Shown one piece after another: positions 1,760-45,076 of a DNA stretch of 64,000 nt. The translations under genes were made by a program, and so were the position numbers. The stretch covers positions 1,632,001-1,696,000 of the forward strand of contig OZ244057.1 in assembly GCA_965215515.1 (NCBI GenBank). Direction: 5' to 3'. The notes beneath the pieces were generated by a model that had not been told where the DNA came from, searched no databases, and saw only the letters and a list, made by a program, of their open reading frames with translations. Positions within the stretch are counted from its first letter, which is position 1. Every line of letters starts with the position of its first letter. The stretch is from Oligoflexales bacterium (lineage in GTDB: Bacteria; Bdellovibrionota_B; Oligoflexia; Oligoflexales; JAPPIL01).

Positions 1760-2557
1760 CTAGCTAACAATGAAAATGTACTCATCCGCATTGGTGAAAG
1801 TAATTTCACCAGTTGCACAAGTGACATCTTCGAGCAAAGCAAAATACAATTTAGGGTCACACTCATAGCGTTCGGACACCTCCTTATCTGCCTTTATCAA
1901 GGCATTCAAAATGTAATCGTTCACACAGATATAAAGCACACCGTCTACTTCCTGATGTTCATAATAAGCATCGATCTTTTTGACGTAGCGACTTTTGCTT
2001 TTACATGTCGTGTCAAACTCGATGGCCAAATTCAACACACCAGCTTTTGAGTTAACTTCAGCCATTGCATCACTGTTAAGTTCAATGAATGGCTGAAACC
2101 TTTCATCGTCTTGGTAATCATCACATGTCTGCAAGACATTTTCGGTGTAGTAATTTTGCACCGATGCCTTAGTCTTAAATACCTCGCGAATATCGTTCAA
2201 GGCGATGTCATGGAGCGGACATTCACTTGATGATCGCACCGATTTTACCTCATACGGCAGCGTTGGTTTGACTTTAGCTAAACCATGTTGCGTTAGCGAG
2301 TAGCCATAAATTATCTTACGCCCTACAGCGACAGACTTTCTTTTTATGAAGTCGATACTTGTGATTTGTCGTAGCCTCCTATTTACAATGTTCTTGGTTG
2401 CATCAGGAAAAAACTGTTCGTGTATCTGATCCCTACTGACAATTTTGTTTTCAAACAACAAGTGCATTATTCGCCAATCCCGTTCTCCTAAAATCACATT
2501 CGTTGAATGCTTTTTAGCTTTAAACAGATTTGCGCGTTCGCGGTATTTTGCTGCCAT
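1760..2557 (-). CDS. Replication-relaxation (Replic_Relax-like) family protein
   Basis: N-terminal wHTH (LGERDWRIMHLL...VNRRLRQI...YSLTQHG), HDIALNDI, and PD-(D/E)xK-like SDAM...LAIEFDTTCKSKSRYVKKIDAY. Confidence 0.75.
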   Translation of the reverse strand: MAAKYRERANLFKAKKHSTNVILGERDWRIMHLLFENKIVSRDQIHEQFFPDATKNIVNRRLRQITSIDFIKRKSVAVGRKIIYGYSLTQHGLAKVKPTLPYEVKSVRSSSECPLHDIALNDIREVFKTKASVQNYYTENVLQTCDDYQDDERFQPFIELNSDAMAEVNSKAGVLNLAIEFDTTCKSKSRYVKKIDAYYEHQEVDGVLYICVNDYILNALIKADKEVSERYECDPKLYFALLEDVTCATGEITFTNADEYIFIVS

Positions 2558-3902
2558 TAGTTTGTATCTCCAAAAGCGAATTAAAATTCTGCCTAGTGCA
2601 ATCCTTGAACTCCTGACTAATAACTTCCAGATCAGTATCTACTAACTCATCGTTAACAAAGGGTGCTTGCACCTCCCCTCGCTCGCTGCCATTACTCCAC
2701 ACGGCACGACCTTCAATAGCTGGCAGGTTTTGTGCGGCATTTTTGCCTAGTGCTGCACTTGAAGCAGCTACTGATGTCATTCTGAAGGTCATTCGCCCCG
2801 CTAAATTATCCAAAATCTCTGTGCTGATTGCCTCCTTGACAGGCTTCTGTGTGGAACTAACCAAGTGAATGCCTGCAGCTCTGGCAAGGCGGGAAAGTTC
2901 ACCCACATGCGAGTGAGCGGGCACACCTGATCTTTTGCCGAACAATGCCGCTGCTTCGTCTATCCCGACTACAACCAAATCTAACTTATCCCTCACGGGG
3001 TCGATTGATTTATGCCCGCTTTGCTCTAAAATTTCATAACGGCGGTGCATTTCTGCCACCAAAGACTTTAGAAGGAGCTTAGCTTCTTTTTCGCTTTTTG
3101 CTGTCCTGACATTTGGCAGTGTGGCGAATTCCTTAACCTCCACTCCTCGCTTCAAATCCAAGAGATATAGCTGAATGTGCGGCGAGCTTTTCAGCAGTGA
3201 AAGCATGGTCGAGCGAAAGAATACTGATTTACCACCGCCCGTTGCACCAGAGATGAGCAAATGCGGCAGCGATTGAATTTTCTGCACGACTACACCCTTC
3301 ATGCTCTGTCCGATGATAAACGAATACGGTTCTTTGATATGGCTATACAATTCGTGAAAGCCAACCATCTTAGGCAGATCACGTTCGCACAGAATTATCT
3401 CAACCTTGCCCATATCCTTGCCATGCACGATGTCTTCAACCTTTTGGCGAAAGCCCGCAGTCAAGCTGTCCTTCTGGGCTTGAAACTTGTTAAGACCGAC
3501 ACCAACGGTATCAACAATCACCTTGAGGCGGTGTTCACCTATAGGAATGATTTTTTTGATTTTCGGATTTTCGCCTGTAGCAGTTTTCAAACCTGCTCGC
3601 TCAATGGCCTTTTGAAAGATAACCTGCCTTCTAAAAGGCTTGCAGCCACAAGCAAACAGAGTGATTACCGCGAGTATGCCCATCAGTGGTAAAGAAAGGC
3701 TCAACGCTTCCTGATGGCTCATTGTCCAAAACAGTGCCAGCAGGGGAATACCATTGATCAACAGAAAAAATGACCACGTGTTTAAATCCTTGAAATCAAT
3801 ACGCCGCAAGCCAAACCAACAAACACGTAGCATGCTAAAGAGCGTATACAGCAGCATGAGGACAAAATTTTCTAGCATCTGATTGTCTTTTGCTTTACTC
3901 AT
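2520..3902 (-). CDS. FtsK/SpoIIIE-family DNA translocase (TcpA-like coupling protein)
   Basis: N-terminal TM helices; PHLLISGATGGGKS Walker A; LLDLKRGVE; VVGIDEAA Walker B; RLARAAGIHLVSSTQKP. Confidence 0.88.
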   Translation of the reverse strand: MSKAKDNQMLENFVLMLLYTLFSMLRVCWFGLRRIDFKDLNTWSFFLLINGIPLLALFWTMSHQEALSLSLPLMGILAVITLFACGCKPFRRQVIFQKAIERAGLKTATGENPKIKKIIPIGEHRLKVIVDTVGVGLNKFQAQKDSLTAGFRQKVEDIVHGKDMGKVEIILCERDLPKMVGFHELYSHIKEPYSFIIGQSMKGVVVQKIQSLPHLLISGATGGGKSVFFRSTMLSLLKSSPHIQLYLLDLKRGVEVKEFATLPNVRTAKSEKEAKLLLKSLVAEMHRRYEILEQSGHKSIDPVRDKLDLVVVGIDEAAALFGKRSGVPAHSHVGELSRLARAAGIHLVSSTQKPVKEAISTEILDNLAGRMTFRMTSVAASSAALGKNAAQNLPAIEGRAVWSNGSERGEVQAPFVNDELVDTDLEVISQEFKDCTRQNFNSLLEIQTNGSKIPRTRKSV

Positions 3903-4837
3903 TGCTCACCTCTGTAAGTTGATAAAAGATTTACGATCATCTCTCTGCCAGCAGGAATAGTGACGTACGCCTGCACGTTGCCAAGCTCAGCCGCTTGCCG
4001 CTGTGCCTCTGCCTCACTTGCTTTAGCGATGCCTTGATAGAGTGCGTTTTTAGCTGTCGCTTTTGGTGTAACTTGACCTTCGCTGCCTAACACTTGCTTC
4101 TCCGTGAGAGTGTCGGTGAATGCTGACACCATTGTCAGACCTAGAGTTGAAGCAACCCGTGCTGCCGTGCCACTGTTCAATTTACCCTCAAGCCCAGGGC
4201 TATAGTCCTTGGCATTCAATGCCTGTGCTTTCAATTCAACCTCCTTACCATCTGGTAGTAATGCCTTTGAAAACTGCATGAATACCTTCCTGCCTTTGTT
4301 GGGATAATTGATCGTGCCGAACAAAATTGAATTCTTTGGGATACCCTCGCCATGCTTGCCCTTGCCTCCATAAGGAAGCAGCACCTTGTAGAGTTGCTCA
4401 CTCTCTCTGGTATCAACAGTAGTCAAGAGCTTGCCGATGAGGTTTGACCCGATGGGTAGCTTGCTGGTGAAACTGTCTGCTCCCTTTCTCTCAATGACTT
4501 GTGGTGCTTTGTATTTGAGTTGCTGCTTGTTTTGAGAAACGGGTTTAGCTTTCCTCGGCTTAGATGCAAGCACTCTCTGTTCTGATGCCTTAAGTAAGCC
4601 ACTTACCTTTTGTGATGTAGGTGAAGATGCTTGTGCTGTTTCAAAATTACCTGTGTCTATCGGCTCAGTGGCGTTGATAATGACACTGTTATCACCATTG
4701 GTTCTAGCATAGATAAGTGGAATAGCTCCTAATACTACCACTACAAACACGGTGCTAAAAAGTTTTGTCTTGTTGATAATTTCTTTGCCACCATCATTCT
4801 TGAGAAAAAACATCCCTATCTGCTTGATGTGCCTCAT
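3899..4837 (-). CDS. VirB10/TrbI-like T4SS core protein
   Basis: Single TM helix, low-complexity linker, C-terminal LPIGSNLIGKL...IPKNSILFG...GLEG...VTIPAGREMIV. Confidence 0.7.
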   Translation of the reverse strand: MRHIKQIGMFFLKNDGGKEIINKTKLFSTVFVVVVLGAIPLIYARTNGDNSVIINATEPIDTGNFETAQASSPTSQKVSGLLKASEQRVLASKPRKAKPVSQNKQQLKYKAPQVIERKGADSFTSKLPIGSNLIGKLLTTVDTRESEQLYKVLLPYGGKGKHGEGIPKNSILFGTINYPNKGRKVFMQFSKALLPDGKEVELKAQALNAKDYSPGLEGKLNSGTAARVASTLGLTMVSAFTDTLTEKQVLGSEGQVTPKATAKNALYQGIAKASEAEAQRQAAELGNVQAYVTIPAGREMIVNLLSTYRGEQ

Positions 4838-5568
4838 CGCAAGAACCCACTGCTGATGATTTTCTTTCCTTGCCTCTTGTTGATCACTACGTTCACGCTA
4901 AAACTTTTAACCTCCTTTGCTGATAAAAATAGTCTTGCCGTTGTTAGCTCACCTGCTTTCAACTCCTCCTTTTCAACTACATATCCTTGCTTTGGCAGAG
5001 GCTTACCTCTGCGGGTTGCAACAATTCTTGCTGATGCAATGTTGATCTTTGTTTTGCTACTATTCTTTAGCTGCATGTCGATAATACGCAGCTGCTTTGC
5101 CTTATCGACAATGGTTTTGGTGATGACAGCAGACATGCCATTGCCAACACTGAATTCAAGTCCGATAGCTTTAAAGCCAAGTATAGCCTCCGCTCTCTTT
5201 GGTTTAGGCACAAAGCGATGGTTTGATTTCCACTTCACAAAAACCAAATCATCAGAGCGGCAACTACTGCACACTCGCAAAACAAAGCCATAGGTGCGAT
5301 AAGGCGTATACACAAACAAGTTTGTTTCAGCTCTGCCAAGCGGCTGAATGGTTAAGTCGTTGTCGATAAATTCAACCGAGTAGTAGTTTTGATTGCCAAT
5401 GACAACCTTCTTGGGTTTTGCTGTGAAGCGCAGCACCGTTGCCTTACCCATCTTCAAGGAGATAGAGTGCATTCTGGTATCATTGACATAAGCTGTTCTG
5501 ATCCCACTTGCTTGTGTTGTTAGAGGTAAACACAGCAAGGCACAAGCCAAGACAAATACCCTATTCAT
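4834..5568 (-). CDS. VirB9/TrbG-like T4SS outer-membrane core protein
   Basis: Signal peptide; ISLKMGKATVLRF...VVIGN...LTIQP...TNLFVYTPYRTYGFVL. Confidence 0.7.
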   Translation of the reverse strand: MNRVFVLACALLCLPLTTQASGIRTAYVNDTRMHSISLKMGKATVLRFTAKPKKVVIGNQNYYSVEFIDNDLTIQPLGRAETNLFVYTPYRTYGFVLRVCSSCRSDDLVFVKWKSNHRFVPKPKRAEAILGFKAIGLEFSVGNGMSAVITKTIVDKAKQLRIIDMQLKNSSKTKINIASARIVATRRGKPLPKQGYVVEKEELKAGELTTARLFLSAKEVKSFSVNVVINKRQGKKIISSGFLR

Positions 5569-6146
5569 TTCGACTGATGCTCGATAACGCCGTTAACTAG
5601 CAGACCTATTGGATTCCAAACACTAGATGTTCCTTTGATTATATTGAGCGATACCGTTGTCGGCACAGGAATAGGCACACCTTCAAGCTGCAACAGCTTG
5701 TCAAAGCTCGCTACTACCTTTTCTTTTGTCACACTGACCTTGACGTTAACAATCGCCTGTGAAGTCTCCTTGCCCTGAAACTCCTTATCCTTGAGATGGG
5801 TTAATAGCTTGAACAATTTCTGATGCAAGCCAGATGTGGTAATGGGTGACAGGCTCTGCTGCTTTGCTTTTGGATCGAGCTTGTCCCACTCATAGCGGAT
5901 GCGCAGAAACTTTCTGACAAACTCTTCAACCGCCACCTCTGAGATAGGCAGGCTTTCCCTCTGTCCTGCAAGATACTGTTGCTGGTCACCATCTTTGATA
6001 ACGACGATGGGATCGGCAACATACATCCAACCGATGACGAACACCTGTAGCACACACACCACAACCAACCCCAAGTTGATCAGTTTGTGCGTACGTAGCA
6101 GCGAATTAATGTCCGTCCATGCTCGCAACGAATTAGTTTTTTTCAT
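5565..6146 (-). CDS. VirB8/TrbF-like inner-membrane T4SS protein
   Basis: Start revised to ATG 6146 (GGAGG RBS); TM helix, NTF2-like periplasmic region, WNPIGLLVNG (VirB8 NPxG motif). Confidence 0.7.
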   Translation of the reverse strand: MKKTNSLRAWTDINSLLRTHKLINLGLVVVCVLQVFVIGWMYVADPIVVIKDGDQQQYLAGQRESLPISEVAVEEFVRKFLRIRYEWDKLDPKAKQQSLSPITTSGLHQKLFKLLTHLKDKEFQGKETSQAIVNVKVSVTKEKVVASFDKLLQLEGVPIPVPTTVSLNIIKGTSSVWNPIGLLVNGVIEHQSK

Positions 6147-6183
6147 AAAGATATGTCCTCCAAAATAATTGATGTATCTATAT

Positions 6184-7071
6184 TCATTTAAGTTTACCGA
6201 GACCTTCACGAAACTTTGTTACCCCTCTCCCGACATGGTTTAGCATGGGGCGAGCTACAAACTTGCCCGCACCCCACGTCTTGGCTACACCCTGTTTAGC
6301 TGCTTGTTTAGCGTAAAGCTTGGCTGCACCTACCGCTGCCGTTGCAGGGGCAAGAGCTAATCCCGATGCTGCCGTCTCAAGTCCATCGTTGATTAATGAG
6401 CGTGTAGCGAGAGGAATAAACAGCATGCTGAGTCCAATACAGAGATTGGTAATCATCGCTACTAAGTAACCTTCCATGTCTTCTCCTGTCTGGGGATTCA
6501 TAGCTAACTTCAATAGCAGTGCACCAAGAATCGTCCAAAGAACTTTCCAGATAACTACCTTCACCAGCCCCTTGTATAAGTTAGCTGTCACATTGGATGT
6601 TGCTTTAGCGACGTAAGCTAAAATCATTAGGGGCGACACTGCGTAGAGAACTACCCAAACGAAATGCACTAGCGATTCAGTGACAAAAAAGCCTAAGTAG
6701 GCAATCAGATAAGAAAACAGTGCCAGTGTGTAGAGAATGTGACCACGCAGATCAAACATTCCGCTCGATGTGTCTTTGTAATTCGGCCCCAGACTTTTTA
6801 GTACTTCCCAGACATCAGTGTTCTTATCTATCTTGCTAACAATCCCACTGCCAAGTTCACCAATAATGTTGATCGTATACTCGAAAGAAAACAACAGCAG
6901 TATCGAGATAACAGCTCGCCTGAAAATACCAAAAACATTGATGCTATCTTTTTGTTCCTTGAAGAACTCCAGTATAATTAACAACAGAACTAGCGGAGCT
7001 AACAGCAACCAATAGAGTTCAAGTATCTCTCCCCGAATATCCTTCGCTACACCTACTAGCTGGTTAAACAT
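6184..7071 (-). CDS. VirB6/TrbL-like polytopic membrane protein
   Basis: About 5-6 hydrophobic segments, Ala-rich C-terminus, operon position. Confidence 0.65.
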   Translation of the reverse strand: MFNQLVGVAKDIRGEILELYWLLLAPLVLLLIILEFFKEQKDSINVFGIFRRAVISILLLFSFEYTINIIGELGSGIVSKIDKNTDVWEVLKSLGPNYKDTSSGMFDLRGHILYTLALFSYLIAYLGFFVTESLVHFVWVVLYAVSPLMILAYVAKATSNVTANLYKGLVKVVIWKVLWTILGALLLKLAMNPQTGEDMEGYLVAMITNLCIGLSMLFIPLATRSLINDGLETAASGLALAPATAAVGAAKLYAKQAAKQGVAKTWGAGKFVARPMLNHVGRGVTKFREGLGKLK

Positions 7072-7764
7072 CTAAAATTTTATGAACTTATCTTGCCGTT
7101 TGAAATTCTTAAAAGCATTGCCTATGCCCTTGTCAACCTTTTGGTAGGCAACAATCTTGCGCTTATCTTGCTTGTTGAGCATGGCTAGCTGTTCGCTTTG
7201 CATCTTCAGACTTTGACTTTGCAAACGAATTAGCTGGTTGACACTCTCCAAAATCATTGCATTGGACACCGCAGCTGCCCGTGCTGCTCCTTTGGGAGAA
7301 GCTGTTTTACTTTGAGTTTTGAGCAATTTCGAATTCTTTTCTTGTGACTCTGAATAGTCTTTGAACGAGTTCACCATCCGCAAAGATTCTGCTGCGGTTT
7401 CATCGTGTAAGCTGTGCAGTGCTGATTCTGGTGATTTGGGTATCCTACCGTAGAAATGCACAATGGCTTTTAATGATTTGTTAAAATCATCTAAATCTGC
7501 GAGCACACCCTGATCACTTACAGGTAATCCGTCTAACATTCCCGTGATGTTTTCTAATCCCTGATGGATGGTGCGAAAATAGTTATCTGACTGTTTGGCC
7601 TGTTCCAGCATGATTTTAAGCTGTGTGTAGCGTTTGTAATTTTCAGACAGCACCTTGGCCAGATAGGGAATTTGTGCCCAACCCGCACCACCATCACTAA
7701 AGCTGAATGCTGGTGTTGAGGTAATGAGTATAGACAACAATATCGCTAAAATTTTAGTTCGCAT
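7072..7764 (-). CDS. VirB5/TrbJ-like secreted helical protein
   Basis: ATG 7764 with GGAGG RBS; signal peptide; Gln-rich helical C-terminus; lies between VirB4-like and VirB6-like genes. Confidence 0.6.
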   Translation of the reverse strand: MRTKILAILLSILITSTPAFSFSDGGAGWAQIPYLAKVLSENYKRYTQLKIMLEQAKQSDNYFRTIHQGLENITGMLDGLPVSDQGVLADLDDFNKSLKAIVHFYGRIPKSPESALHSLHDETAAESLRMVNSFKDYSESQEKNSKLLKTQSKTASPKGAARAAAVSNAMILESVNQLIRLQSQSLKMQSEQLAMLNKQDKRKIVAYQKVDKGIGNAFKNFKRQDKFIKF

Positions 7765-10213
7765 GGTTACCTCCAATTAAAAATTTTTGATCGAGCTTTT
7801 TACCCTCCCCAAAAGCTAATAGTTCAAGAACCTCTAGTTTACTCAAAGCTGGATGTTTCTTTTCTGTATTAGCAATCAGTGTCTTGTCGTTAGCATCTGA
7901 AGTAGCAATCCAGTGACTGATTGGTTCAGGGATAAGCCGCAAGATGGCATCGCGCTCATCTTGCAGATAGTAGAACTCGCTGTATTCGCCCTTCTTGATG
8001 GTTAAACTCTTGATGCGCTCAACTTGCGTAGCATTGAAATCAAAAGTTTTTTGAAAATCGTCCCAGTCGATTTTGCTTTGGCGCAGAATGATAACACTGG
8101 TGGTGTTGGTCATTAGTGCATCTCGCAAAGCCTTATCTGCCATAAAATCTTTGTAGTTTTGGCTCAAACACCAGATGCCGCTGCGAAACTTGCGCCACGT
8201 GCGATAACAGGTAATCACTACTTGTCGTGCTAGTTCAGATTGGAATAAGCGTTCGGCTTCGTCGATAATCAGCAGATACTCACGTTCAATGTCTGAGGAA
8301 GCGACATCTTGAATGTGAGAGGTCAGAAGCAACAGCAACACGTCTTTCAGGTCAGAATAGTTGCTTAACTGCTGCACCTCGATAGACACCAAATCTTTGC
8401 TCAGTTCAACGTTAGTTTGCCCGTCAAGCATCTGCCCATAGGCTGATTGTCCCGTCCAGCTGTAAAGCACATCGCCAAACTTGCGCATCTGCTTATCTGT
8501 GTGCCTGTCGAGCAATGCCTTCAAGTCTGATAGCGTAGGTATCTTGCCTTTTGCGTCAGCATAGACCTTGTGTAGCTGTTCTTCGAGCAATGCCTTCTCA
8601 CGCTTGCCAAGTGCCTGCTTGTCATCGTCTTTGAGGATCATCTCCAGCACTGCTAGCAACGTGCGAATGCGATCTGGACTTGGTGTTGTCTCACCTTCCT
8701 TTAGATCGAACATGTTGAGGCACAGACCAGAGCCGAGCTTGAGGTCTAAAAACTCGCCGTCGAGCACTTCAATTAAACGTTTAGATGATGCGCCATTGTC
8801 GATCCAAACAATTCTAGGACGATTGCCGTTGGTTACCTTGCCATAAAACATCGCCATCAATTGAACGACGGTATAGCTCTTACCGCTGCCTGAACTGCCG
8901 AAGACTATGCCGTTCCATGCAGGCAGGTGTTCTGCATAGGGATCAAGACTGAACAATTGTCCGTCTCTCGTCGGCAGCAAGCACACAGGCGTAGGGTTGC
9001 CTGTCCAGTTAGCAAACACAGGCATTAGGTGTGCAGCGTTGCTAGATTTCATCTTCTTGTGTCGCAAGCCCTGACAGGTGCTAGGCATGGACTTCAAGAA
9101 GGCTTCCTTGCCTGCCAGTGTCTCTTGCAATCCTTCAGCTTGATTGAGCAGACGAAAAGTTTTCAGTATCTCATCGGTCTTGTCATCTAGTTCGCTACTG
9201 GTTTTGCCCCAGATGATGATATTGAAATCGGCCGACACGAGTTTTTCTGAACCTTCTAGCAAATTTCCTAGTAAACCTTCGATCTGTCCGAGCTTGTTTT
9301 CTGAATCCAGATCACTAACGTTCTTGCTGCCAGAAGCCATCGAGTGGGCAATGCGCCTTTTCATTTCCAGTTTTGATTTCTCCTTTGCTTGGTCGAGCAG
9401 GTGAATTGACTGACTCAACCAAAAGTGAAACGGCACGGCTGCGAACATGTTAGCCATACCCGCGAATGTCTGTCCTTCGGGCAACGTGGCAAGGCTGATA
9501 GTGCGAAACTTGTAATTCCCCAGCGTGATGGCCTGTTTGTCCCAGATGAAATCGGTCAAGGTTAACTGCTCGCTAATAGATGGATCAAGGCAACTGTGCT
9601 GCTCACGATAACGAGCTGTGCCAATCCTTTCAGTTCGATCTAGGTTTAGAAACGCAAACAGTAGTCCAAACCATTCTTCCCGCTGCAACGCTTGTGGCGC
9701 AAGCCGAACAGCTTCAATTGCTGAAGCAATACCTTTCACTTCCCGCAAGAACTTCGCTTTGCGACTGTCGAACTCCGCTTTGCTAATTTGCTGAAACGCA
9801 CGCTCGCTGTTAAACAAACCCTGTCGTTGCATGGCAAAGGCTTTGCTGCGCACGAAAAAGAAAATGTTTGGCACAAAGTAGCTCCCCTTGCTCTGATTGC
9901 GTCGATAGAGCTCAACACGCGCATCAGCTAACCGTTTGTAATTGCCGCCAATGCTACTAGAGAGCCGTTGATGCTGTTTTATCAACTGACTAACATCTGG
10001 TGTCAGCTGATAGAACAATTGCAAACGCATTCCCTCATCAGCAGAGATGAGCAGGTTTTCTAAACCTCTACTCATCTGATTGATCGCTTGCTCTGTGGCA
10101 CAAGTCATGTCAAAGCCTCCAAGCTTGAACCCTGCACCGAGCGAGCCATCTTTAAAAACCATTAGGTCATCATCGAAGTGCCAAAGCTCAAGCTCATTAG
10201 CTAGGCTACTCAT
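7754..10213 (-). CDS. virB4: VirB4/TraC-family T4SS ATPase
   Basis: Start revised to 10213 (MSSLANEL); NGIVFGSSGSGKS Walker A; WIDNGAS; LLIIDEAERL Walker B; RTWRKFRSGIWCLSQ. Confidence 0.9.
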   Translation of the reverse strand: MSSLANELELWHFDDDLMVFKDGSLGAGFKLGGFDMTCATEQAINQMSRGLENLLISADEGMRLQLFYQLTPDVSQLIKQHQRLSSSIGGNYKRLADARVELYRRNQSKGSYFVPNIFFFVRSKAFAMQRQGLFNSERAFQQISKAEFDSRKAKFLREVKGIASAIEAVRLAPQALQREEWFGLLFAFLNLDRTERIGTARYREQHSCLDPSISEQLTLTDFIWDKQAITLGNYKFRTISLATLPEGQTFAGMANMFAAVPFHFWLSQSIHLLDQAKEKSKLEMKRRIAHSMASGSKNVSDLDSENKLGQIEGLLGNLLEGSEKLVSADFNIIIWGKTSSELDDKTDEILKTFRLLNQAEGLQETLAGKEAFLKSMPSTCQGLRHKKMKSSNAAHLMPVFANWTGNPTPVCLLPTRDGQLFSLDPYAEHLPAWNGIVFGSSGSGKSYTVVQLMAMFYGKVTNGNRPRIVWIDNGASSKRLIEVLDGEFLDLKLGSGLCLNMFDLKEGETTPSPDRIRTLLAVLEMILKDDDKQALGKREKALLEEQLHKVYADAKGKIPTLSDLKALLDRHTDKQMRKFGDVLYSWTGQSAYGQMLDGQTNVELSKDLVSIEVQQLSNYSDLKDVLLLLLTSHIQDVASSDIEREYLLIIDEAERLFQSELARQVVITCYRTWRKFRSGIWCLSQNYKDFMADKALRDALMTNTTSVIILRQSKIDWDDFQKTFDFNATQVERIKSLTIKKGEYSEFYYLQDERDAILRLIPEPISHWIATSDANDKTLIANTEKKHPALSKLEVLELLAFGEGKKLDQKFLIGGNHAN

Positions 10214-10520
10214 AAATCTTCCTCCGCATCTGTGCTGCTTGTGTTGGTTCTTGACCAGCCGAGAAAAAACCCGGCGATACATAGAAACGCAGCAAATGAG
10301 GCAAGAACTTCTCTGGCTTGCCGCGTTTGCCAAAGTAAAACACCGCAAGGATCAGTGCAGGGCAGCCAATCACCAACGGCAGCTCTAACACCGTGTCCCC
10401 GAAGAACAGGTTCATAATTGCGGCGAAGATCAAAGCTATCAGCAGATCGAGGGCTTCAATGCCCCCGACCTTAAACTTCGCATCTAAATTCCGCTGCACC
10501 TCTGAAGTGTAAACTTCCAT
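10206..10520 (-). CDS. VirB3-like small membrane protein
   Basis: Two TM segments; GKRGKPEKFLPH; immediately upstream of virB4. Confidence 0.65.
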   Translation of the reverse strand: MEVYTSEVQRNLDAKFKVGGIEALDLLIALIFAAIMNLFFGDTVLELPLVIGCPALILAVFYFGKRGKPEKFLPHLLRFYVSPGFFSAGQEPTQAAQMRRKIYE

Positions 10521-10810
10521 CACCCTACCGCCGCAGATTGAAACCAGCGAATTATTAAGGGAGCGAGAAAGCCAACCACACTAGCAATGATCACCAGCAC
10601 CATGCGTCGCTTCGCCCCTTCATCGCCGCTCATGGTGAGCATAGCGGCATAGAGCAAGCCAAGTATGGCCACAGCAGGCAAGACCACCGACATCAAATTG
10701 TCGGTGAACGAGCGAATTCTGCCCTCAAAACCACTTCCACCCCAGAACTGGGCGAGAGCTGTGTTAGAAATCCATGCGAGACAAACTACCCAGAGTTTTC
10801 TTGAAATCAT
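10520..10810 (-). CDS. VirB2/TrbC-like pilin
   Basis: Signal peptide (ALA-Q) followed by two hydrophobic helices separated by GDEGAKRR. Confidence 0.7.
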   Translation of the reverse strand: MISRKLWVVCLAWISNTALAQFWGGSGFEGRIRSFTDNLMSVVLPAVAILGLLYAAMLTMSGDEGAKRRMVLVIIASVVGFLAPLIIRWFQSAAVG

Positions 10811-11157
10811 TTATTTTTCAGATAAAGCACTAGAGTTTTGAATTTCGAGCCATAGCTGATGAACACACTGCCATCTGTATCTGCGTTTCTGTAGCCAGTT
10901 CCGACTAGCTGTCGTTTACGAAAACTACCATCTTTGTGTTTCAGCACCAGCTCCATGCGGTAGGTGACATGATCATCCTCGCTGGCATAGGGTTTGAGAA
11001 AATACTGCTTCTCGCTTGGTTCTTCGTCGATCTTTAGTAGATACTCGCCGTAGGTAGGGTTGTAGAAGCTAACGCCTGCGTGGTTGATACTGTCATCTCG
11101 CGGATCGAGCCAACCAAGAGTTAGCGTTTCGTGTTTGGTTACATCTTTGCTTTGCAT
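10807..11157 (-). CDS. Hypothetical beta-rich cytoplasmic protein
   Basis: GAGG RBS, ATG 11157; ATGA overlap with the pilin gene. Confidence 0.6.
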   Translation of the reverse strand: MQSKDVTKHETLTLGWLDPRDDSINHAGVSFYNPTYGEYLLKIDEEPSEKQYFLKPYASEDDHVTYRMELVLKHKDGSFRKRQLVGTGYRNADTDGSVFISYGSKFKTLVLYLKNK

Positions 11158-11222
11158 TTGATACCTCACTGTTAAGATTTAGAATGGACTTCCCCTTACA
11201 ATCTTCCCAGCGTAGATTTAGG

Positions 11223-11582
11223 TTATGCTGCCCTCCTTTCTACTGCTAACCTCCACAGGTCAAGGTAGATGTCTGTGTTGCCGTAAATGTCCCACTCCAG
11301 TTGAATTAGCCCTGCATTGCTACCACTCATGAGATGACCAACACCGACCTGCTTTAAACCTCTGACACGTGAGCTGCGATGATAGATCACATAATCGTTA
11401 TCTGCCCGTATGTCCTCTTCTGGTATGAGGATGTGGCTGTCAGGAGCGAAGCCGTTGATCAATAGCTTGTAAGTGATGAGTATTGGGTGACCATAGCCAA
11501 CGCTACGAACTTTCACTATCTGCCCACTCCTGCTTTTCCGTCCCTTGAACACATCGAGCATAGTCGTTGCCTCCCTCAACAT
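11223..11582 (-). CDS. Hypothetical beta-rich protein, weakly similar to 10807-11157
   Basis: ATG at 11582 overlaps the upstream TGA; QVGVGHL resembles QLVGTGY of its neighbour. Confidence 0.55.
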   Translation of the reverse strand: MLREATTMLDVFKGRKSRSGQIVKVRSVGYGHPILITYKLLINGFAPDSHILIPEEDIRADNDYVIYHRSSRVRGLKQVGVGHLMSGSNAGLIQLEWDIYGNTDIYLDLWRLAVERRAA

Positions 11583-11863
11583 CAGGCCGCCACCGCTATA
11601 GAGAAATGCGGCTGCTCTACGCACTCACGCTTGAGCTTGATCAGTGCATCCTTGATCGTCCTGTCCGCTTGTTCCCATGTAAGGCCGAGCGTCTTAGCCA
11701 CCTCGAAAATCGTGTAGTCGTGCCAAAACCGCAGCACAATTGCCTTCCTCTGTCTTGGCCGCAGTTTTCTCGACAACGAGCGAGCTTGGAGCGAGAAAGC
11801 GGCAAACAAGCCTCCATGAGCAAAGCGAATGGAGTGATTCTCAAATGAAAATTTTACTGTCAT
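11582..11863 (-). CDS. Sigma-70 region-4 HTH protein
   Basis: LRPRQRKAIVLRFWHDYTIFEVAKTLGLT...IKDALIKLK; GGAGG RBS. Confidence 0.8.
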   Translation of the reverse strand: MTVKFSFENHSIRFAHGGLFAAFSLQARSLSRKLRPRQRKAIVLRFWHDYTIFEVAKTLGLTWEQADRTIKDALIKLKRECVEQPHFSIAVAA

Positions 11864-11982
11864 GTAGCACCTCCAAAGTTGGCGATTAAAGAAAATTTCC
11901 CCTCCACTAAGGCAGAAAAAGACAACCTTTCGACAACCTCATGAACAAAAAATTCAATATTATCAGCAACTTTTCATCAACA

Positions 11983-12453
11983 TCAGCTGGCTAGCATTTG
12001 TTTAGCTGCCATGACCTGTCGCCTAAACGAACTGCTGGTAAAATTTGTTTTTATCTTTGCTAGAGCTATTTTCATGGTTTTACGCACCGCTTGTTTACTT
12101 ACCCCCATGCTTGCAGCTATTTCGGCAACTGTTTTGCTATCCCAGTAGTAACGTATAACCACGTCTCGCTGTTTAGGGGTAAGCTCACGAATGCAGGCAT
12201 CCAGCATAACCTTGAGGAGTGGGTAGCTCTGCTTTCTTGCCATAGAAAACGCCACGCTGATGTGTTGCTCCGTTGAAAAGGTATCCATTTCAGCAGGCGA
12301 AAGAACATCTTCCTCTCGCCTACCCACCTCCAGCGTAGAAAGGTATGCCTCCCACACACTTGGCGGCCATTGCTGGCCTTCCTTTCGGATTTTGGCATCG
12401 GATTTAATGCTACCGTCCTCGTTCAGCCATGGTTTCAGTTGTGAATTGTTCAT
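11983..12453 (-). CDS. Sigma-70 region-4 HTH protein (ICE activator-like)
   Basis: LTPKQRDVVIRYYWDSKTVAEIAASMGVSKQAVRKTMKIALAKIK. Confidence 0.8.
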   Translation of the reverse strand: MNNSQLKPWLNEDGSIKSDAKIRKEGQQWPPSVWEAYLSTLEVGRREEDVLSPAEMDTFSTEQHISVAFSMARKQSYPLLKVMLDACIRELTPKQRDVVIRYYWDSKTVAEIAASMGVSKQAVRKTMKIALAKIKTNFTSSSFRRQVMAAKQMLAS

Positions 12454-12556
12454 GCGGGGCCTCTCTCACAGTTGGTTGATCTGCCATTGCTGCCAACATT
12501 AGGCATTGGCTATAACTCCCACGCTGCAGTTGCCCCTTGGAATGCAGCTGTTGACA

Positions 12557-12574
12557 AGACTAAAATAATAGTCT
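12557..12574. promoter_or_regulatory. Palindromic operator AGACTA-N6-TAGTCT, copy 1
   Basis: AGACTAAAATAATAGTCT directly after TTGACA (12551-12556) in the divergent intergenic region; a near-identical copy is at 44331. Confidence 0.7.
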
Positions 12575-12671
12575 CTAATATAATTACTAGATTAATTTAT
12601 TTCTAGATCTTGGGCTTGTAAAGAATAAATTTTGTGGTTTGGTAAAAAATTTTTAGGGATGTTGAGAACTA

Positions 12672-13211
12672 ATGGATATGACAGCAGAATTTAGCGTTGG
12701 TCTTGGTCGCACCTTCAAGGCTGTGCGGGAGCGAGAGGACTTAACACAGAAGGAGTTAGCTACAGGCATGGGGGTTAGCGTGCAGCAGATCAAGCGTTAT
12801 GAGCAGGAGAATCTCGCTATGATCGGCTCACACGGTTTTTCTATCAGCATGCTGATCAAGCTTGCCGAGTATCTCAACACGCATCCTGCCACCTTGTTTG
12901 CTGAGATTATGTCGCACTCACGGATCGCACCACGTGATGATCGGACACGGGAATTGCGTAAGGTGCTGGCTGCTGTGGCTAGCGATAGCCTTGACGCACT
13001 GCTTGCTGCGAAGTCGAAACGAGAGAGAGTGCCGTTTGGCAACGTCGCTGTCTGGAATTTAGAGATGGCAGCCAACCTCGCCCGCCTCCCTGTTAAAGCA
13101 AGAGCGCGGGTCGGAATGGAGATACTACAAGCGTTAGTTGATAATGGCATTGTCTCCCGCAAGGAGGTTGATAGCCAGCAACGGCAGTTGTTTGAATTCT
13201 CGGTGGGTTAG
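12672..13211 (+). CDS. XRE-family HTH transcriptional regulator, copy 1
   Basis: AVREREDLTQKELATGMGVSVQQIKRYEQ; divergent from the T4SS operon. Confidence 0.88.
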   Translation: MDMTAEFSVGLGRTFKAVREREDLTQKELATGMGVSVQQIKRYEQENLAMIGSHGFSISMLIKLAEYLNTHPATLFAEIMSHSRIAPRDDRTRELRKVLAAVASDSLDALLAAKSKRERVPFGNVAVWNLEMAANLARLPVKARARVGMEILQALVDNGIVSRKEVDSQQRQLFEFSVG

Positions 13212-13408: not shown

Positions 13409-14002
13409 ATGAACAGAGAAATCCACTCGGCACTATACCAAATAGCTAGTGAGCAGTGCGGACTATTTACTGCCCGACAAGCCATCGAAGCAGGTTTCAC
13501 TGCCAAAAATCACCTTTACTATGTCAAAGCTGGTTACTGGGAAAAGGAGCACAGGGGCATATATCGACTTAAAGATTTCCCCCTTGAGCAATCCTATGAA
13601 TACGTATTGTGGTCGTTGTGGTCGTGTAATAGAACTGGCAAAGTGCAAGGCGTGTTTGGCTTTGAAACAGCACTGAGTATTTACGAACTTTCTGACTTGT
13701 CGCCTGCAAAAATACATATGATTGTTCCCCAAAGCTTCAGAAAAAAAACAGCAATACCTAAGGTTCTCGTTCTCTACAACGAGAATCTCAAGTCCGAAGA
13801 TTGGCAAGATATGGGCGGTTACCGTGTAACAACTCCAACCAAAACTTTGTCAGATATAATTTTCTCACAGCGAATATCACGAGAGTTTGTTTGCCAAGCT
13901 ATCGAAGAAGGAATGGGAAGAGGACTTTATCCTATCAGTGAGTTGAGGAAATACGGCATTGCTAGCCTTACACAAGAGCTACTGGTGAAGCATGGTCGTT
14001 AA
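13409..14002 (+). CDS. Type IV TA antitoxin, AbiEi family
   Basis: EQCGLFTARQA...RGIYRL...ETALSIYEL...RVTTPTKTLSD. Confidence 0.85.
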   Translation: MNREIHSALYQIASEQCGLFTARQAIEAGFTAKNHLYYVKAGYWEKEHRGIYRLKDFPLEQSYEYVLWSLWSCNRTGKVQGVFGFETALSIYELSDLSPAKIHMIVPQSFRKKTAIPKVLVLYNENLKSEDWQDMGGYRVTTPTKTLSDIIFSQRISREFVCQAIEEGMGRGLYPISELRKYGIASLTQELLVKHGR

Positions 14003-14867
14003 AAAATACAGCACACCAAAATCTTTTCTAGATGCTATAAGTCACCGTCTTCGGCTCGTTTCAAGAGATGAGGGCTTGCCAGCAATCAGATTTCGCCGCA
14101 GCTTAGCATTCGACAGACTACTAGCAAGGATATTTCACACCAAAGAAACATCTTGGCTGCTTAAAGGTGGCTATGCCATGGAGTTGCGCATGGAAAATTC
14201 GAGAGCAACCAAGGATGTCGATCTCACCTTGTTTGAGAAAAGCCTGAGTGGGTTAATGGAAGAAAATCAGTATAATGCTATTCATCAAATCCTGACACGA
14301 GCAGCACTCCTTGATCTAGGAGACTATTTCAAATTTGAAATAGGAGAGGCTAAAAAGAATATCTTATCTCCTCCTTACGGTGGGGCTCGTTATCCTGTCA
14401 CTTCGATCATAGCAGATAAAACGTTTATAAAATTTCATGTTGATGTGGCGATAGGAGATCCAGCTATTGATCCTCCGTCACACTTAAAAAGTAGAAATTG
14501 GCTTGATTTTGCTGGAATTAAATGTCCAACATTTGTGGCTATTTCGGCAGAGCAGCAGTTTTCAGATAAGCTCTATACGTATACTATCCCACGCAAAGAT
14601 ACTCCTAACACACGTATGAAAGACCTTGTCGATTTAGTGATGCTGGTTCAAAGTGGAGAGCTTGAAAGAGATAGAGTTAAAACAGCACTGGAGACAAAGT
14701 TTGCCCACTATAAGACTCACAAGCTACCAGCCTCCTTGATACCTCCACCGTCAGAGTGGAAAACCTCATTTGCGCAGCTAGCCGCAGAATGCAAAATAGA
14801 AACAAATATCAACAAGGCTTTTGATTTAGTCGCGGAATTTTACACCAAGATTATACAGCACCAATAG
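13992..14867 (+). CDS. Type IV TA toxin, AbiEii nucleotidyltransferase
   Basis: WLLKGGYAMEL...RATKDVDL...NTRMKDLVDL; overlaps abiEi. Confidence 0.88.
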   Translation: MVVKKYSTPKSFLDAISHRLRLVSRDEGLPAIRFRRSLAFDRLLARIFHTKETSWLLKGGYAMELRMENSRATKDVDLTLFEKSLSGLMEENQYNAIHQILTRAALLDLGDYFKFEIGEAKKNILSPPYGGARYPVTSIIADKTFIKFHVDVAIGDPAIDPPSHLKSRNWLDFAGIKCPTFVAISAEQQFSDKLYTYTIPRKDTPNTRMKDLVDLVMLVQSGELERDRVKTALETKFAHYKTHKLPASLIPPPSEWKTSFAQLAAECKIETNINKAFDLVAEFYTKIIQHQ

Positions 14868-15104
14868 TCACTCCTGCTGTAAGTCATGCGGGAAATTTTC
14901 CACAAAACACCGAGTGCGGGGCATTGCGCCCCACCCCTACTCTACACGGTCTCACACACAGAGTTTTGTGCTGCTGTCCTATACATAAGAGACAAAATAA
15001 TAGTCCCTATGGGATATTTGAGAACACGATAATATTAACAGGCATTGCCCGTCAAACAAAATTTTCAAGAAAATGTTGAGATGGACAGAAGAAACTGCGG
15101 TCTG

Positions 15105-15647
15105 CTAGCACTTCTCTATCTGAAACAGAGTTGACATGCGCACGTAGCAACTATCACCTTTACTGTCATCTTCTTTGGCTGCCAACATCATCTTGGTAGC
15201 GGTGCGCACCATATCGAGGGCTTCTTGGGCTACGGTTAGGGGAATTTTGTTCGTGGTTATGTGCCCACCTTTTATCGTGCCGATACCCTCGTGCTGGGCG
15301 AGTTCTGATATATGTTTGGCTTTTAGGGCGGTAACCTTGAGTTTCTCTAGTTTTGACAGTTCACTGGAACACAGTTCTCCTCGCAGGGGGCGTAGCCCTG
15401 ACGGTGCGATCTCGTCCTCTACCACAACCCCATCATCTACAAAGGCTTGCCTGATTAGCTTGAACAGGCTGGAAGCAAGAGATTCACCAATAGTAGATAT
15501 TACCCCGTCTTCAAGCTCCTTACCGGCGGTGAGATTTGTCCAACATTCGGTTACTTCGACAGGATATTGCAGGAAGATGTGATGTGTGCGCGGTGCGCTC
15601 TCCTTTGTAACCACCAGTGGCTTGGTTTTGAGGGCTTGAGATGACAT
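15105..15647 (-). CDS. Hypothetical protein
   Basis: 180-aa ORF with GGAGG RBS; no recognisable motif. Confidence 0.55.
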   Translation of the reverse strand: MSSQALKTKPLVVTKESAPRTHHIFLQYPVEVTECWTNLTAGKELEDGVISTIGESLASSLFKLIRQAFVDDGVVVEDEIAPSGLRPLRGELCSSELSKLEKLKVTALKAKHISELAQHEGIGTIKGGHITTNKIPLTVAQEALDMVRTATKMMLAAKEDDSKGDSCYVRMSTLFQIEKC

Positions 15648-16120
15648 GACAGCCTCCGTAGTAATGTGTTAGCGATTGGCTCGGCAACGGCAAGCCCTGC
15701 CCCTCACATTTGCCACTAGGCTAGAATCGACTGTAGCAACAAGATTATACTCATGTCCAGCAGAAAGTTGTGTAAATTTTGTGCAGGCATAGACCCTGTC
15801 CTACAAGGATTTCAGAGGTAGGAGTCCTATCCGTAGTCCTAAAGGTAGCCCATGAGCAGATACCAGCAGAGGTAATAACGTTCTCAGGCAAGTATTGCAC
15901 AGACAAGCTTATCCTACCTCGAAAGATGATGCCTTGTGTTTATAGCTCGACTAAATATGAATTATCCATTGCGTCACAATCCATTTTTATAGGGTATATT
16001 ATTGCTGCTCTTTGTTTTTCTTTAAAACTATCTCCGCAGAAAATGTTAATCAAAAATTAATTAAGTTCAACCAAGTTCCGATGTTATGAGCAAGATCAAC
16101 ATATTGTTCATAGGTAGAAT

Positions 16121-17576
16121 ATGGCTCGAAGGACAAAAGAGTTACGTCTCACGCACCTTGAGGAGTTTTTGGACAAGGTCGATGCTTGCAAAGGGAAATT
16201 ATCCGCTAGGAAAAAAAGGGAGCTCGGCAAACATTTTCTTGAAGTCGTTATGGGACTTAAAGATGAGTTCGTTGCCTGTAAACGGGCAAAAGAATCGCCT
16301 GACTTTGAACCTCATAGTGAGGGGTCGTACTCGTGGGCGTTGTTTGTCACTGATAAAGAAGATTTGCAAGAAGAATATCACGACAGAGCTAACTCTTATC
16401 TACATCCTAATAAGGCCGGTGAAGAATTCCATGCTGTTATCATCAACCAATGATGCATGGATGGGCGGCATTAATGCATATATAAAGTGGCTGATACCTA
16501 GATTAAGGGAATGCTATAGGCTGCTAAAAGATAGTGGTGTTTTCTGTTTACACTTAGATCATCGTTCCTCTCACTACGCAAAAGTAGAGTTGGACAAAAT
16601 TTTTGGGCAGAACAACATGATTAACGAAATAATATGGCAACGAGATCCAGCTGGTAAGGGAGCGAAAAAGACCTCAAAACAATTTCCAAGAAATCATGAT
16701 ACGATACTGGTTTATGCAAAAACGCAAAAATTTGTATTTCGTCAACAGCATGTACCGTTGACTGATGAGCAGAAGAAAACGTTTTCACAGATAGAACCTA
16801 AGACAGGAAGAAAATTCAGAACTGCTCCCATCGGGGATTATTCAGAAACATCAATAGCAAAAATGAAGAAAAAGGGAATGATATACACTACAGGTGGTGG
16901 AAAGCTAAGGAAAAAGTACTACTTAGATAAGTATAAGAGTGCTGTTGGCTCTGTCTGGACAGATATTCTTGGTTTTGGAACAAGATCAGGAGCTAAAGAA
17001 AGGGTTAATTATCCAACACAGAAGCCATTAGCGTTACTTAATCGTCTTATAGAAGCATTTACAAGAGAGAATGATTTGGTTTTTGATGCCTTTTGTGGTT
17101 GTGGAACAACGATAAGTTCTGCACAGCAGCTTGGACGACGTTGGTTGGGGATTGATGTTAGCAAAGATGCCATAAATGTTATCAAAGAAAGGATGGTTCG
17201 TGATCACAAGTTGAGGATAGAAGTTATCCGAGATGATAGTCTATCCAAAGCTCAAGTTATGTCACTGTCTCCTTTTGAATTTGAAAAACATATGGTATCT
17301 CTTATTGGTGGGACACCAAATATTCAGCAAGGAAGAGATGGTGGTGTTGATGGGTACACACATGATCACATTCCCATACAAGTAAAGAAATCATACAGAG
17401 TCGGTAGACCTTTTATTGATGCTTTTCTCAAACACATACAAAAGCGTGGTGCTGGCATAGTAATAGCACATAGCTTCTCAAAAGATGCTCATGAAGAAGC
17501 TTATAGATTGGAAAATGAACATGGCTACACTGTTGATTTGATGTATACTCGCGATTTATTGCGAGACGCATCTTAA
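16121..17576 (+). pseudogene. Disrupted N6/N4 DNA methyltransferase with C-terminal Mrr-like nuclease domain
   Basis: Protein-like frame 16121-16453 switches near 16450 into the frame DAWMGG...RLLKDSG...YPTQKP...FDAFCGCGTT...DGGVDG...IQVKK; the expected catalytic DPP(F/Y) motif is absent. Confidence 0.7.
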
Positions 17577-38017: not shown

Positions 38018-38382
38018 TTCAACCTCTCTCTACGTAAGCTTGTGCTCGTGCGCAGAGAACGCCAGTTAGCTACCGGGCTGAGCCATCTCACCTGTTCTGT
38101 TTCCATGAACAACCACGTGCCCCTTAGCCATACGTCTGTGTTGATCAGCTGATCATAGACCCAAATTTTAGCGATGCGGGCGGGTTGACGGGTTGGCATG
38201 TCCAGCGATCCGATTGCTTTGGTAATCCGGTTATTTTTTAACTGGGTTGTTTCTGTAATCGCTCTTGTGCCAACAGCAAGTCCACTGCGCTTGTTTAGTT
38301 CATGGGTGGTCGGCGCGAGCGTGGCACAGCCGTGCAATGCCATCAGTGCGACAGCCAAAATTTTTTGCTTGCCCATCATCAT
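38014..38382 (-). CDS. TraV-like lipoprotein
   Basis: Lipobox LHGC; PTRQPARIAKIWVYD...W pattern. Confidence 0.7.
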   Translation of the reverse strand: MMMGKQKILAVALMALHGCATLAPTTHELNKRSGLAVGTRAITETTQLKNNRITKAIGSLDMPTRQPARIAKIWVYDQLINTDVWLRGTWLFMETEQVRWLSPVANWRSLRTSTSLRRERLK

Positions 38383-38391
38383 CACCTCCAT

Positions 38392-40960: not shown

Positions 40961-40968
40961 CGTCTCTC

Positions 40969-41301: not shown

Positions 41302-41305
41302 TGTC

Positions 41306-44283: not shown

Positions 44284-44330
44284 CGGCTACACTTCGCCTC
44301 ATAGTCATCAGCCGTTGCTGACGGAAGTTA

Positions 44331-44348
44331 AGACTAAAACAATAGTCT
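44331..44348. promoter_or_regulatory. Palindromic operator AGACTA-N6-TAGTCT, copy 2
   Basis: AGACTAAAACAATAGTCT, 17/18 identical to 12557-12574, same relative position. Confidence 0.7.
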
Positions 44349-45048: not shown

Positions 45049-45076
45049 GAATTGCGTCCTGCGGTAGTATGTGGAT

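Follow-up and report, generated by a model that had tools for sequence, protein, structure and literature searches.

Can a single small repressor gene, together with its operator, head conjugation operons of different types within one genome? This question is raised by a 64,000-nucleotide stretch of DNA (the window) from an Oligoflexales bacterium (NCBI GenBank assembly GCA_965215515.1, contig OZ244057.1), which covers genome positions 1632001-1696000 of a single-contig 2.18-Mb genome and holds two XRE-type genes, XRE1 (X1) and XRE2 (X2), each divergent from a type IV secretion system (T4SS) operon. An initial annotation, made from the letters of the window, had proposed that the same XRE repressor and 18-bp operator precede both operons. 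Here, we describe the two loci, their paralogues in the same genome and their relatives in other genomes. In our best reading, the XRE protein is likely to be an autoregulated repressor of the adjacent transfer operon, carried with its operator on a portable cassette.

Two XRE genes behind one 18-bp dyad

XRE1 and XRE2 are identical at 140 of 180 positions (78%, E 2e-107, BLASTP), share the recognition helix SVQQ(I/V)KRYEQ, and both pass the 23-bit cut-off of the Pfam helix-turn-helix (HTH) family HTH_3 (PF01381), with 39.8 bits for XRE1 and 34.4 bits for XRE2. Upstream of each lies an exact copy of the palindrome AGACTA-N6-TAGTCT, which ends 97 nucleotides (nt) before the ATG of XRE1 and 96 nt before that of XRE2 and has a different spacer at each locus (AAATAA vs AAACAA). 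The identity, the shared helix, the gene coordinates and the two palindromes all stand as the initial annotation gave them. Promoters were called by consensus hexamer matching only. The features of the two loci are listed here (group A is defined below by helix and site; types A and B are the two T4SS types of the window; ORF, open reading frame):

12672-13211, + strand: XRE1 (X1), group A, 179 amino acids (aa); N-terminal HTH_3 domain, recognition helix SVQQIKRYEQ, C-terminal ~100 aa without a family match
44445-44987, + strand: XRE2 (X2), group A, 180 aa; recognition helix SVQQVKRYEQ
12557-12574, unstranded: operator O1 of XRE1, AGACTAAAATAATAGTCT, exact AGACTA-N6-TAGTCT
44331-44348, unstranded: operator O1 of XRE2, AGACTAAAACAATAGTCT, exact AGACTA-N6-TAGTCT
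12594-12622, - strand: candidate leftward transfer promoter at XRE1; TTTACA (12622-12617), 17 nt, TAAATT (12599-12594), then 19 nt to O1
44368-44396, - strand: candidate leftward transfer promoter at XRE2; TTTACA (44396-44391), 17 nt, TACGGT (44373-44368), then 19 nt to O1
12551-12556, + strand: candidate -35 (TTGACA, a consensus match) of a rightward XRE1 promoter, abutting the operator, with a -10-like TAATAT at 12576-12581
12523-12548, - strand: stem-loop at the XRE1 locus, between the operator and the ribosome-binding site of the leader ORF
44306-44323, - strand: stem-loop CGUCAGC-AACG-GCUGAUG at the XRE2 locus, flanked by the operator and by the first type-B gene's ribosome-binding site
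12450-12506, - strand: putative leader ORF (18 aa) behind a GGAG ribosome-binding site, translation presumed from sequence

Under a mononucleotide model of the 2.18-Mb genome, 0.10 exact copies of AGACTA-N6-TAGTCT are expected and 2 are observed, both upstream of an XRE gene, which answers the genome-wide scan that had been proposed for the palindrome. At one mismatch or fewer there are 4 sites genome-wide against 3.95 expected, 3 of which lie 94-97 nt upstream of XRE paralogues; within the window, up to two mismatches give 3 dyads against 1.47 expected, an unremarkable number that was reached in 20 of 100 shuffles. The fourth, at genome position 836166 (the third core site, GACTA-N6-TAGTC, at 836167), was ruled out as an operator, as it lies inside an ORF with no mobile-element context. 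Extra core sites exist in three further genomes (G045, G046 and G047), where a backwards-read control pattern is equally frequent. Across five group-A loci, 11 of the 12 columns of the dyad arms are invariant, vs 44 of 160 columns in the remaining intergenic alignment, and the longest invariant runs are AAGAC, AATAGTCT and the TGTAA of the -35.

In each of the nine loci whose upstream DNA is intact, a leftward sigma-70-like promoter can be drawn that matches the consensus at 8-11 of 12 positions. Its -35 lies at -47 to -50 (negative positions are counted from the XRE start codon), its spacer is 17-18 nt long, and 19-20 nt separate its -10 from the dyad. The -35 reads TTTACA in group A and TTGACA, TAGACA or TTGGCG in group B, and the -10 reads TACGTT, TACGGT or TAAATT in group A and TATAGT in group B. 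At 19-20 nt past the leftward -10, the dyad would begin shortly after the probable start of transcription, a place suited to repression or a roadblock. On the other side, the dyad fills the spacer of a candidate rightward XRE promoter in X1 and in two loci of other genomes, L011 (TTGACA, as in X1) and L012 (TTGATA), with 10 of 12 consensus matches; this arrangement, which is not conserved at X2 and X3, is the classical layout of autoregulation as far as the hexamers indicate. A block close to the XRE ATG (CTGTAAAGAA...) was considered as the XRE promoter and dropped, the leftward promoter's -35 being a better match for it.

Left of the dyad, a short GC-rich stem of differing sequence is predicted at the equivalent place in most of the nine loci and is clearest in seven; since the single-sequence folding z-scores of individual hairpins are mostly not significant, we leave the hairpin as an observation. 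In 8 of the 9 intact-operator loci, a ribosome-binding site and ATG follow at -155 to -166, and on the XRE1 side of the window the first sigma-like gene has an ATG that overlaps the stop of the leader ORF. When the DNA of the XRE1 and XRE2 loci is aligned, similarity extends from near the start codon of the first leftward ORF to the XRE stop. The comparison supports reading the XRE gene, the promoter region, the 18-bp dyad, the hairpin and the first leftward ORF's ribosome-binding site and ATG as one homologous cassette.

Two helix types and two site types

The genome encodes five full-length XRE paralogues, X1 to X5. X3 (genome position 1587077) is 94% identical to X2 and 78% to X1, and X4 (genome 15272) and X5 (genome 138821) are each 59% identical to X1. 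Group A (X1, X2, X3) combines the helix SVQQ(I/V)KRYEQ with an AGAC(T/C)A-N6-TAGTCT site, and group B (X4, X5) combines the helix SEGYLKRLER with GGTAAC-AAATAG-TATACC at the same position. The X3 dyad, AGACCAAAACAATAGTCT, keeps the distance to XRE seen in X1 and X2. The recognition helix of X4 and X5 reads ISEGYLKRLERG, vs VSVQQIKRYEQE in group A, and their dyad, GGTAACAAATAGTATACC, is imperfect and lies at -115 to -98, exactly matching the position of the group-A dyad.

Beyond this genome, 3 of 3 further genomes from the same taxonomic family carry the XRE family; in the other families of the order, 1 of 91 genomes does so at E <= 1e-10. Beside type-A operons, the group-A loci L011 (genome G046) and L012 (G045) carry the exact dyads AGACTATAAAAATAGTCT at -114 and AGACTACAAAAATAGTCT at -112, and the group-B loci L014 (G046) and L015 (the same as L020 of G047) carry GGGTATAAATAGTTTACT and GGGTATAAATAGTTAACC, both at -115. 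All four distinct group-B loci (X4, X5, L014, L015) have the helix S(E/D)GYLKRLER and, in columns -115 to -98, the site GG(G/T)(A/T)A(C/T)-AAATAG-T(A/T)(A/T)AC(C/T), which occurs nowhere else in the genome. Wherever the upstream DNA is intact (9 of 9 loci, from four genomes), helix type, site type and site position agree; the palindrome is kept upstream of homologous XRE genes in other genomes and varies with the recognition helix, and it was on such conservation that the initial annotation had staked its proposal. At another group-A locus, L013 (G046:C1:417138-437674, upstream of 10001), the upstream DNA has been replaced from the middle of the dyad, leaving the TAGTCT arm, and no T4SS adjoins; an AbiE pair lies downstream.

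The degenerate site that had been placed near 14990 is real, and is a decayed copy of a unit that is intact in two relatives:

14990-15006, unstranded: decayed second operator O2, AGACAAAATAATAGTCC; AGAC-AAAATAATAGTCC, one base missing

This window copy of O2 is served by a separate leftward -35, TTGACG (15055-15050), and by a -10-like hexamer, and the unit as a whole looks decayed. Two relatives keep O2 intact at the equivalent place ~100 bp past the stop of the homologue of o15105, a gene downstream of XRE1: L011 has GGACTAAAATAATAGTCC, which lies within a perfect palindrome of 28 bp, and L012 has AGACTAAAATAATAGTCC. A leftward TTGAC(A/G) -35 and, 18-22 nt ahead of the site, a -10-like hexamer complete a second promoter-operator unit, which shares the geometry of O1 and is present in 3 of 3 group-A type-A loci. 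The window copy faces an inserted AbiE pair, and the L012 unit stands upstream of a lipoprotein gene and a HigBA-like pair. Leftward of O2, a ~100-nt non-coding stretch (window 14880-14990) with a GGGGC...GCCCC stem is conserved with L011 and could be a small transcript under XRE control.

The XRE proteins appear to form a small family with two domains, borne on conjugative elements of a single family of Oligoflexales. An AlphaFold2 (AF2) model built from 17 sequences has a mean predicted local distance difference test (pLDDT) score of 65.5, with helices confident over residues 3-81. Foldseek against the PDB gave nothing at E <= 0.001 and weak matches that span the HTH only, and the C-terminal part is left uncovered by every PDB match, whether of sequence or of fold. 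The top fold and profile matches of the HTH domain are restriction-modification (R-M) controller proteins (C.BclI, template-modelling score 0.81 on the target, profile E 4e-4), with other HTH_3 proteins also among the best fold matches, and the ICEBs1 Xre-family chain 7t8i matches over the HTH only (E 0.005, PDB profile search). Family scans of XRE1 and XRE2 at E <= 0.001 returned only HTH families, with no S24 autopeptidase (the hallmark of CI, LexA, SetR and LvrR), and found none of the known sensor domains; XRE scores 33.8 bits against the RstR-family phage repressor NF041951, below the curated cut-off of 80, and a scan of 69 window ORFs found no ImmA/IrrE-type metalloprotease gene. The XRE profile has 947 matches at E <= 0.001 among 1.84 billion representative proteins, most of them via the HTH alone; of the 150 listed from these 947, 13 match without a break over ~150 or more profile positions and are 171-204 aa long. 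The two-domain family is small. A tblastn search of the plasmid collection with XRE1 gave zero matches, JGI metagenome contigs gave 119 pattern matches to the XRE-family profile with 0 confirmed, and literature searches turned up neither this XRE family nor conjugation in Oligoflexales. No RNA run was found to contain the region. Sponge, coral and marine metagenome runs contain related DNA fragments in small shares only, and contigs from four such small-share DNA runs (at least 85%) comprise parts of T4SS, XRE and AbiE genes and leave the operator uncovered.

Two transfer operons and their histories

The genes of the two operons and their neighbours, as assigned by Pfam and NCBIfam scans (scores with cut-offs where noted), are:

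1760-12453, - strand: type-A T4SS/transfer operon
11983-12453, - strand: sigma-70 region-4 protein 1 (type A), nearest XRE1
11582-11863, - strand: sigma-70 region-4 protein 2 (type A)
10520-10810, - strand: VirB2/TrbC-like pilin (type A); T4SS_pilin 27.0 vs 26.6, a narrow pass
7754-10348, - strand: TraC/VirB4-like ATPase (type A); PF19044 69.2 and PF11130 51.8, both pass
4834-5568, - strand: CagX/VirB9-like (type A); CagX score under the cut-off
3899-4837, - strand: TrbI/VirB10-like (type A); TrbI 44.6, passes
2520-3902, - strand: FtsK/SpoIIIE-like coupling ATPase (type A); FtsK_SpoIIIE 84.7, passes
1760-2557, - strand: Replic_Relax/MobC-like protein (type A)
30172-44283, - strand: type-B (F-like) T4SS operon
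43468-44283, - strand: first type-B gene, nearest XRE2
42380-43483, - strand: GspE/PilB-like ATPase (type B)
41620-42411, - strand: TraF/TrbB-like (type B)
40175-40960, - strand: TraE (type B); Pfam TraE 27.6 vs 24.8
39369-40178, - strand: TraK (type B); TraK_C 35.9 vs 28.5
38392-39372, - strand: TraB/TrbI (type B); TrbI 61.2 vs 35
36254-38017, - strand: TraD (type B); TrwB_AAD_bind 179.8, above the cut-off
33646-36426, - strand: TraC-like (type B), followed by three ORFs without assignment
45071-45907, + strand: C-terminal fragment of a Ti-type TraA relaxase/helicase; TIGR02768 positions 548-746 of 751, below the cut-off
15105-15647, - strand: conserved protein o15105, 180 aa, without family match, convergent and downstream of XRE1

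By its family matches, the left operon encodes a VirB4/TraC-bearing T4SS, and no curated T4SS subtype reaches its cut-off there. In the right operon, all scores against NCBIfam F-type equivalogs are far below cut-off (e.g. TraD 106.7/521, TraC 119.6/567); as no protein of either operon reaches an NCBIfam equivalog cut-off, both systems are divergent. GC content is 43-48% in the left operon vs 52-55% in the right, tblastn with the left VirB4 did not recover the right TraC-like gene at E 1e-5, and the first type-B gene has no homologue in three family relatives and only 39-40% relatives in genome G066. The initial annotation had spoken of two unrelated conjugation systems, of which the difference in type and composition is borne out by the family scans and GC content; "unrelated" goes too far, both being T4SS. 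It had further assigned them to integrative and conjugative element (ICE) and plasmid classes, which we do not follow, since both lie in the chromosome and nothing marks either as a plasmid. The only relaxase trace adjoining XRE2 is the C-terminal helicase part of a Ti-type TraA, and the F-like element of XRE2 may be without a complete relaxase.

By tblastn, the genome holds four copies of the type-A operon, beside X1, X4 and X5 and at 607 kb, and two of the type-B operon, beside X2 and, decayed, beside X3 (1579.9-1586.9 kb), where the first gene has a TGA stop and neither TraD nor most of TraC was found by tblastn. The T4SS clusters outside the window stand at 4-15, 127-138 and 607-617 kb (type A) and at 1580-1587 kb (decayed type B). 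A full-length XRE relative of 26% identity in G066 (L048, C51:8000-27000) is divergent from a complete Trb/VirB-type operon (TrbB, TrbC, VirB3, TrbE, TrbL, VirB8, VirB9, VirB10 and TraG; also TopA and an ArdC-like gene), which ties the XRE family to at least three T4SS types; inverted repeats around this distant homologue were examined and gave no clear operator.

The VirB4 of the X1 operon is 87% identical to that of X4, 84% to that of X5, 82% to that of L011 and 67% (partial) to that of L012. The XREs run opposite to this, with X1 and X4 just 59% identical vs 87% for their VirB4. The VirB4 tree clusters by host genome and not by XRE group, and forcing the four group-B loci to be monophyletic in it costs 90.6 log-likelihood units (approximately unbiased (AU) test, p = 3.3e-5), so that cassette and T4SS have separate histories, a decoupling brought out by the comparison of XRE and VirB4 phylogenies that had been suggested at the outset. 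As to its cause, the trees are compatible with either exchange of cassettes among elements or homogenisation of co-resident T4SS genes. In the XRE tree, X2 and X3 form their own branch (99/97) beside, not inside, the type-A-associated group-A XREs; a nesting of X2/X3 among the latter, which would give a direction of transfer, is unsupported. At 78% identity of X2 and X3 to X1, the sharing is old; of the earlier proposal that a regulatory cassette was swapped between elements, one homologous cassette before two T4SS types remains and a recent swap falls away.

The sigma-70 region-4 proteins at the head of the type-A operon contain little else, and one has a weak match (22 bits) to the NCBIfam "positive control sigma-like factor"; the pair recalls PBSX, with its Xre/Xpf cascade from repressor to sigma-like activator. 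A homologue of o15105 is convergent downstream of XRE in 7 of 7 type-A loci examined and is absent from type-B loci. In group-B loci (genome ~15960-16260 and 139400-139700; L014, L015), ~57-nt tandem repeats, which may be coding, lie past the tblastn match to the o15105 homologue. Two AbiEi/AbiEii toxin-antitoxin pairs occur in the window (13409-14867 and 28462-30158), the former between XRE1 and o15105, where relatives have other cargo. A Type ISP R-M enzyme at 49528-52533 is split over three ORFs (ResIII/DEAD; Helicase_C and ISP coupler; Type_ISP C-terminal domain) and is probably a broken gene, and a fused BioD-BioA (AAA_26 and Aminotran_3, 663 aa) at 54269-56260 adjoins a BioF-like aminotransferase gene.

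Proposed control and its precedents

To the observed sequence conservation, site position, helix/site co-variation and tree incongruence, our best reading adds binding, the sign of regulation, promoter use, cross-talk and co-induction, which we infer. XRE would bind the 18-bp dyad, probably as a dimer, within what would be the initially transcribed region of the transfer operon, where the dyad starts 19-20 nt after the leftward -10, and in some loci would also occupy the spacer of its own gene's promoter; once bound, XRE would silence the T4SS operon and hold down its own production. The opening residues of the recognition helix would decide specificity, V-Q-Q with AGACTA arms in group A and E-G-Y with GGTAAC/GGTATA arms in group B; in 434/lambda-type HTH proteins, the outer operator bases are read by the first residues of helix 3. 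The cassette (gene, promoters, operator, hairpin and start of the first leftward ORF) would have moved, or been retained, independently of the T4SS genes, so that specificity A would now head the type-A operon at X1, the F-like type-B operon at X2 and the decayed type-B remnant at X3. Since X1, X2 and X3 share specificity A, they should be cross-regulated, with X4 and X5 insulated from them, and cross-repression among X1 to X3 is plausible.

Several points weigh against this reading. The promoters are consensus matches and nothing more, and a stricter promoter scan gave none at XRE2, where the -10 (TACGGT) is weak. The C-terminal ~100 residues of XRE are poorly modelled (AF2 pLDDT 35-65), and the group-B site is an imperfect dyad. 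The co-variation reflects a single A/B specificity switch among loci that are kin (X2 and X3 are near-duplicates, X4, X5 and L014 are close, and L011, L013 and L014 come from one genome), and is therefore suggestive and not statistical proof. The type-A copy at 607 kb is without any XRE, so the cassette is not obligatory, and gene conversion among co-resident T4SS copies could yield the tree incongruence without cassette transfer.

Among other explanations, it is possible, if rather unlikely, that the cassette is simply ancestral to several T4SS lineages and that each copy acts in cis only, the 22%-divergent X1 and X2 being insulated by drift in affinity or oligomerisation. The well-supported separate branch of X2/X3 (99/97), the differing spacers (AAATAA vs AAACAA), the many differences between the C-terminal domains of XRE1 and XRE2 and a distant relative that heads a third T4SS type, which suggests an old association, would all suit such paralogy; yet the operator arms of X1 and X2 are identical, their recognition helices are one conservative I/V change apart, and no sequence feature points to insulation. 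We regard it as improbable that XRE binds the dyad as an activator or dual switch, in the manner of R-M controller proteins or of Rco at its own promoter, and not as a plain transfer repressor. The site lies 19-20 nt downstream of the leftward -10 in 9 of 9 loci, which is typical of repression or a roadblock, and the decayed X3 element keeps an intact XRE, as expected of a repressor that is harmless to keep; set against these are the controller proteins (C.BclI) as closest solved HTH folds, the dyad that fills the spacer of a strong rightward promoter in X1, L011 and L012, and the Rco protein of plasmid pLS20, which is reported both to activate and to repress its own promoter (PMC4207663).

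There is also a slim chance that the dyad is the site of another protein (the element's own sigma-region-4/HTH proteins, a host nucleoid protein, or a relaxosome or recombination factor), which travels with XRE by linkage while XRE acts elsewhere. Type-A operons do start with two sigma-70 region-4 proteins that need DNA somewhere, and the A/T-rich core of the dyad resembles the sites of bending proteins, but the type-B loci X2 and X3 retain the dyad without sigma-like genes, the outer bases of the dyad vary exactly where the XRE recognition helix varies, and L013, which keeps XRE and has lost half of the dyad with the whole T4SS side, fits a promoter-operator unit.

The reading as an autoregulated repressor on a portable cassette can be widened, tentatively and with more doubt than confidence, to one in which the cassette is an exchangeable "immunity type". 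X1, X2 and X3 would then form one trans-repression group and X4 and X5 a second, orthogonal one, through a three-residue helix switch and matching operator changes; the decayed element would have been kept since its repressor polices its neighbours, and O2 would bring cargo genes or a small transcript into the regulon. The two helices and two dyads at one position would constitute a natural repressor-operator specificity pair on conjugative elements of a little-studied phylum, with the proposed operator recovered from sequence alone. If cross-repression holds, the six T4SS clusters of one genome would be run by only two regulatory circuits, which would bear on how multiple ICEs co-exist or decay in reduced, possibly host-associated genomes.

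Phage-like, element-encoded repressors such as ImmR (ICEBs1) and SetR (SXT/R391) keep transfer genes off and confer immunity, and SXT/IncA/C regulators act in trans on other elements. The present arrangement is broadly like these and like phage immunity regions, but unlike ImmR/ImmA and SetR in that scans of the XREs and their neighbours recovered no ImmA-type metalloprotease and no S24 autopeptidase domain. In the immunity regions of lambdoid phages (434/P22/lambda) and in R-M C proteins, a small HTH protein and a dyad operator make up an exchangeable specificity cassette, in which the N-terminal residues of helix 3 determine specificity, and a C protein is said to act as a roadblock downstream of a promoter in a study of C.Kpn2I; the present cassette differs in that it would control T4SS operons, not lysis-lysogeny or restriction, and carries an extra domain of ~100 aa. 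Rco of pLS20 is similar in size to the present XREs, which we liken to it by layout and not by sequence relationship.

In the Bacillus subtilis plasmid pLS20, Rco is reported to repress the main conjugation promoter and to activate and repress its own, from an XRE-type gene divergent from the conjugation operon, with two operators and with an N-terminal HTH followed by a C-terminal part that does not bind DNA (PMC4207663). A divergent XRE gene with an operator at divergent promoters is likewise found here, on candidate promoters drawn from sequence. The pLS20 operators are reported to be close together and looped via a tetramer, whereas O1 and O2 here are 1.5-2.4 kb from each other and each follows a promoter of its own; nothing like a Rap/Phr anti-repressor was seen here, the host is Gram-negative (Bdellovibrionota) and the T4SS types are others. 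In Legionella, one lvrRABC module is reported to head several T4SS classes in the genus (GI-type, Lvh, P- and F-type), which the authors read as coordinated control (PMC3864950). LvrR is presented there as having domains like those of SOS-response regulators, in a four-gene module that includes a CsrA-like gene; the present module is one gene, whose C-terminal domain is unrelated and lacks an S24 peptidase, with a defined operator and helix co-variation. By analogy with these systems, the concept has precedent both in repressor-controlled conjugation and in a regulatory module common to several T4SS classes, as in Legionella lvrRABC.

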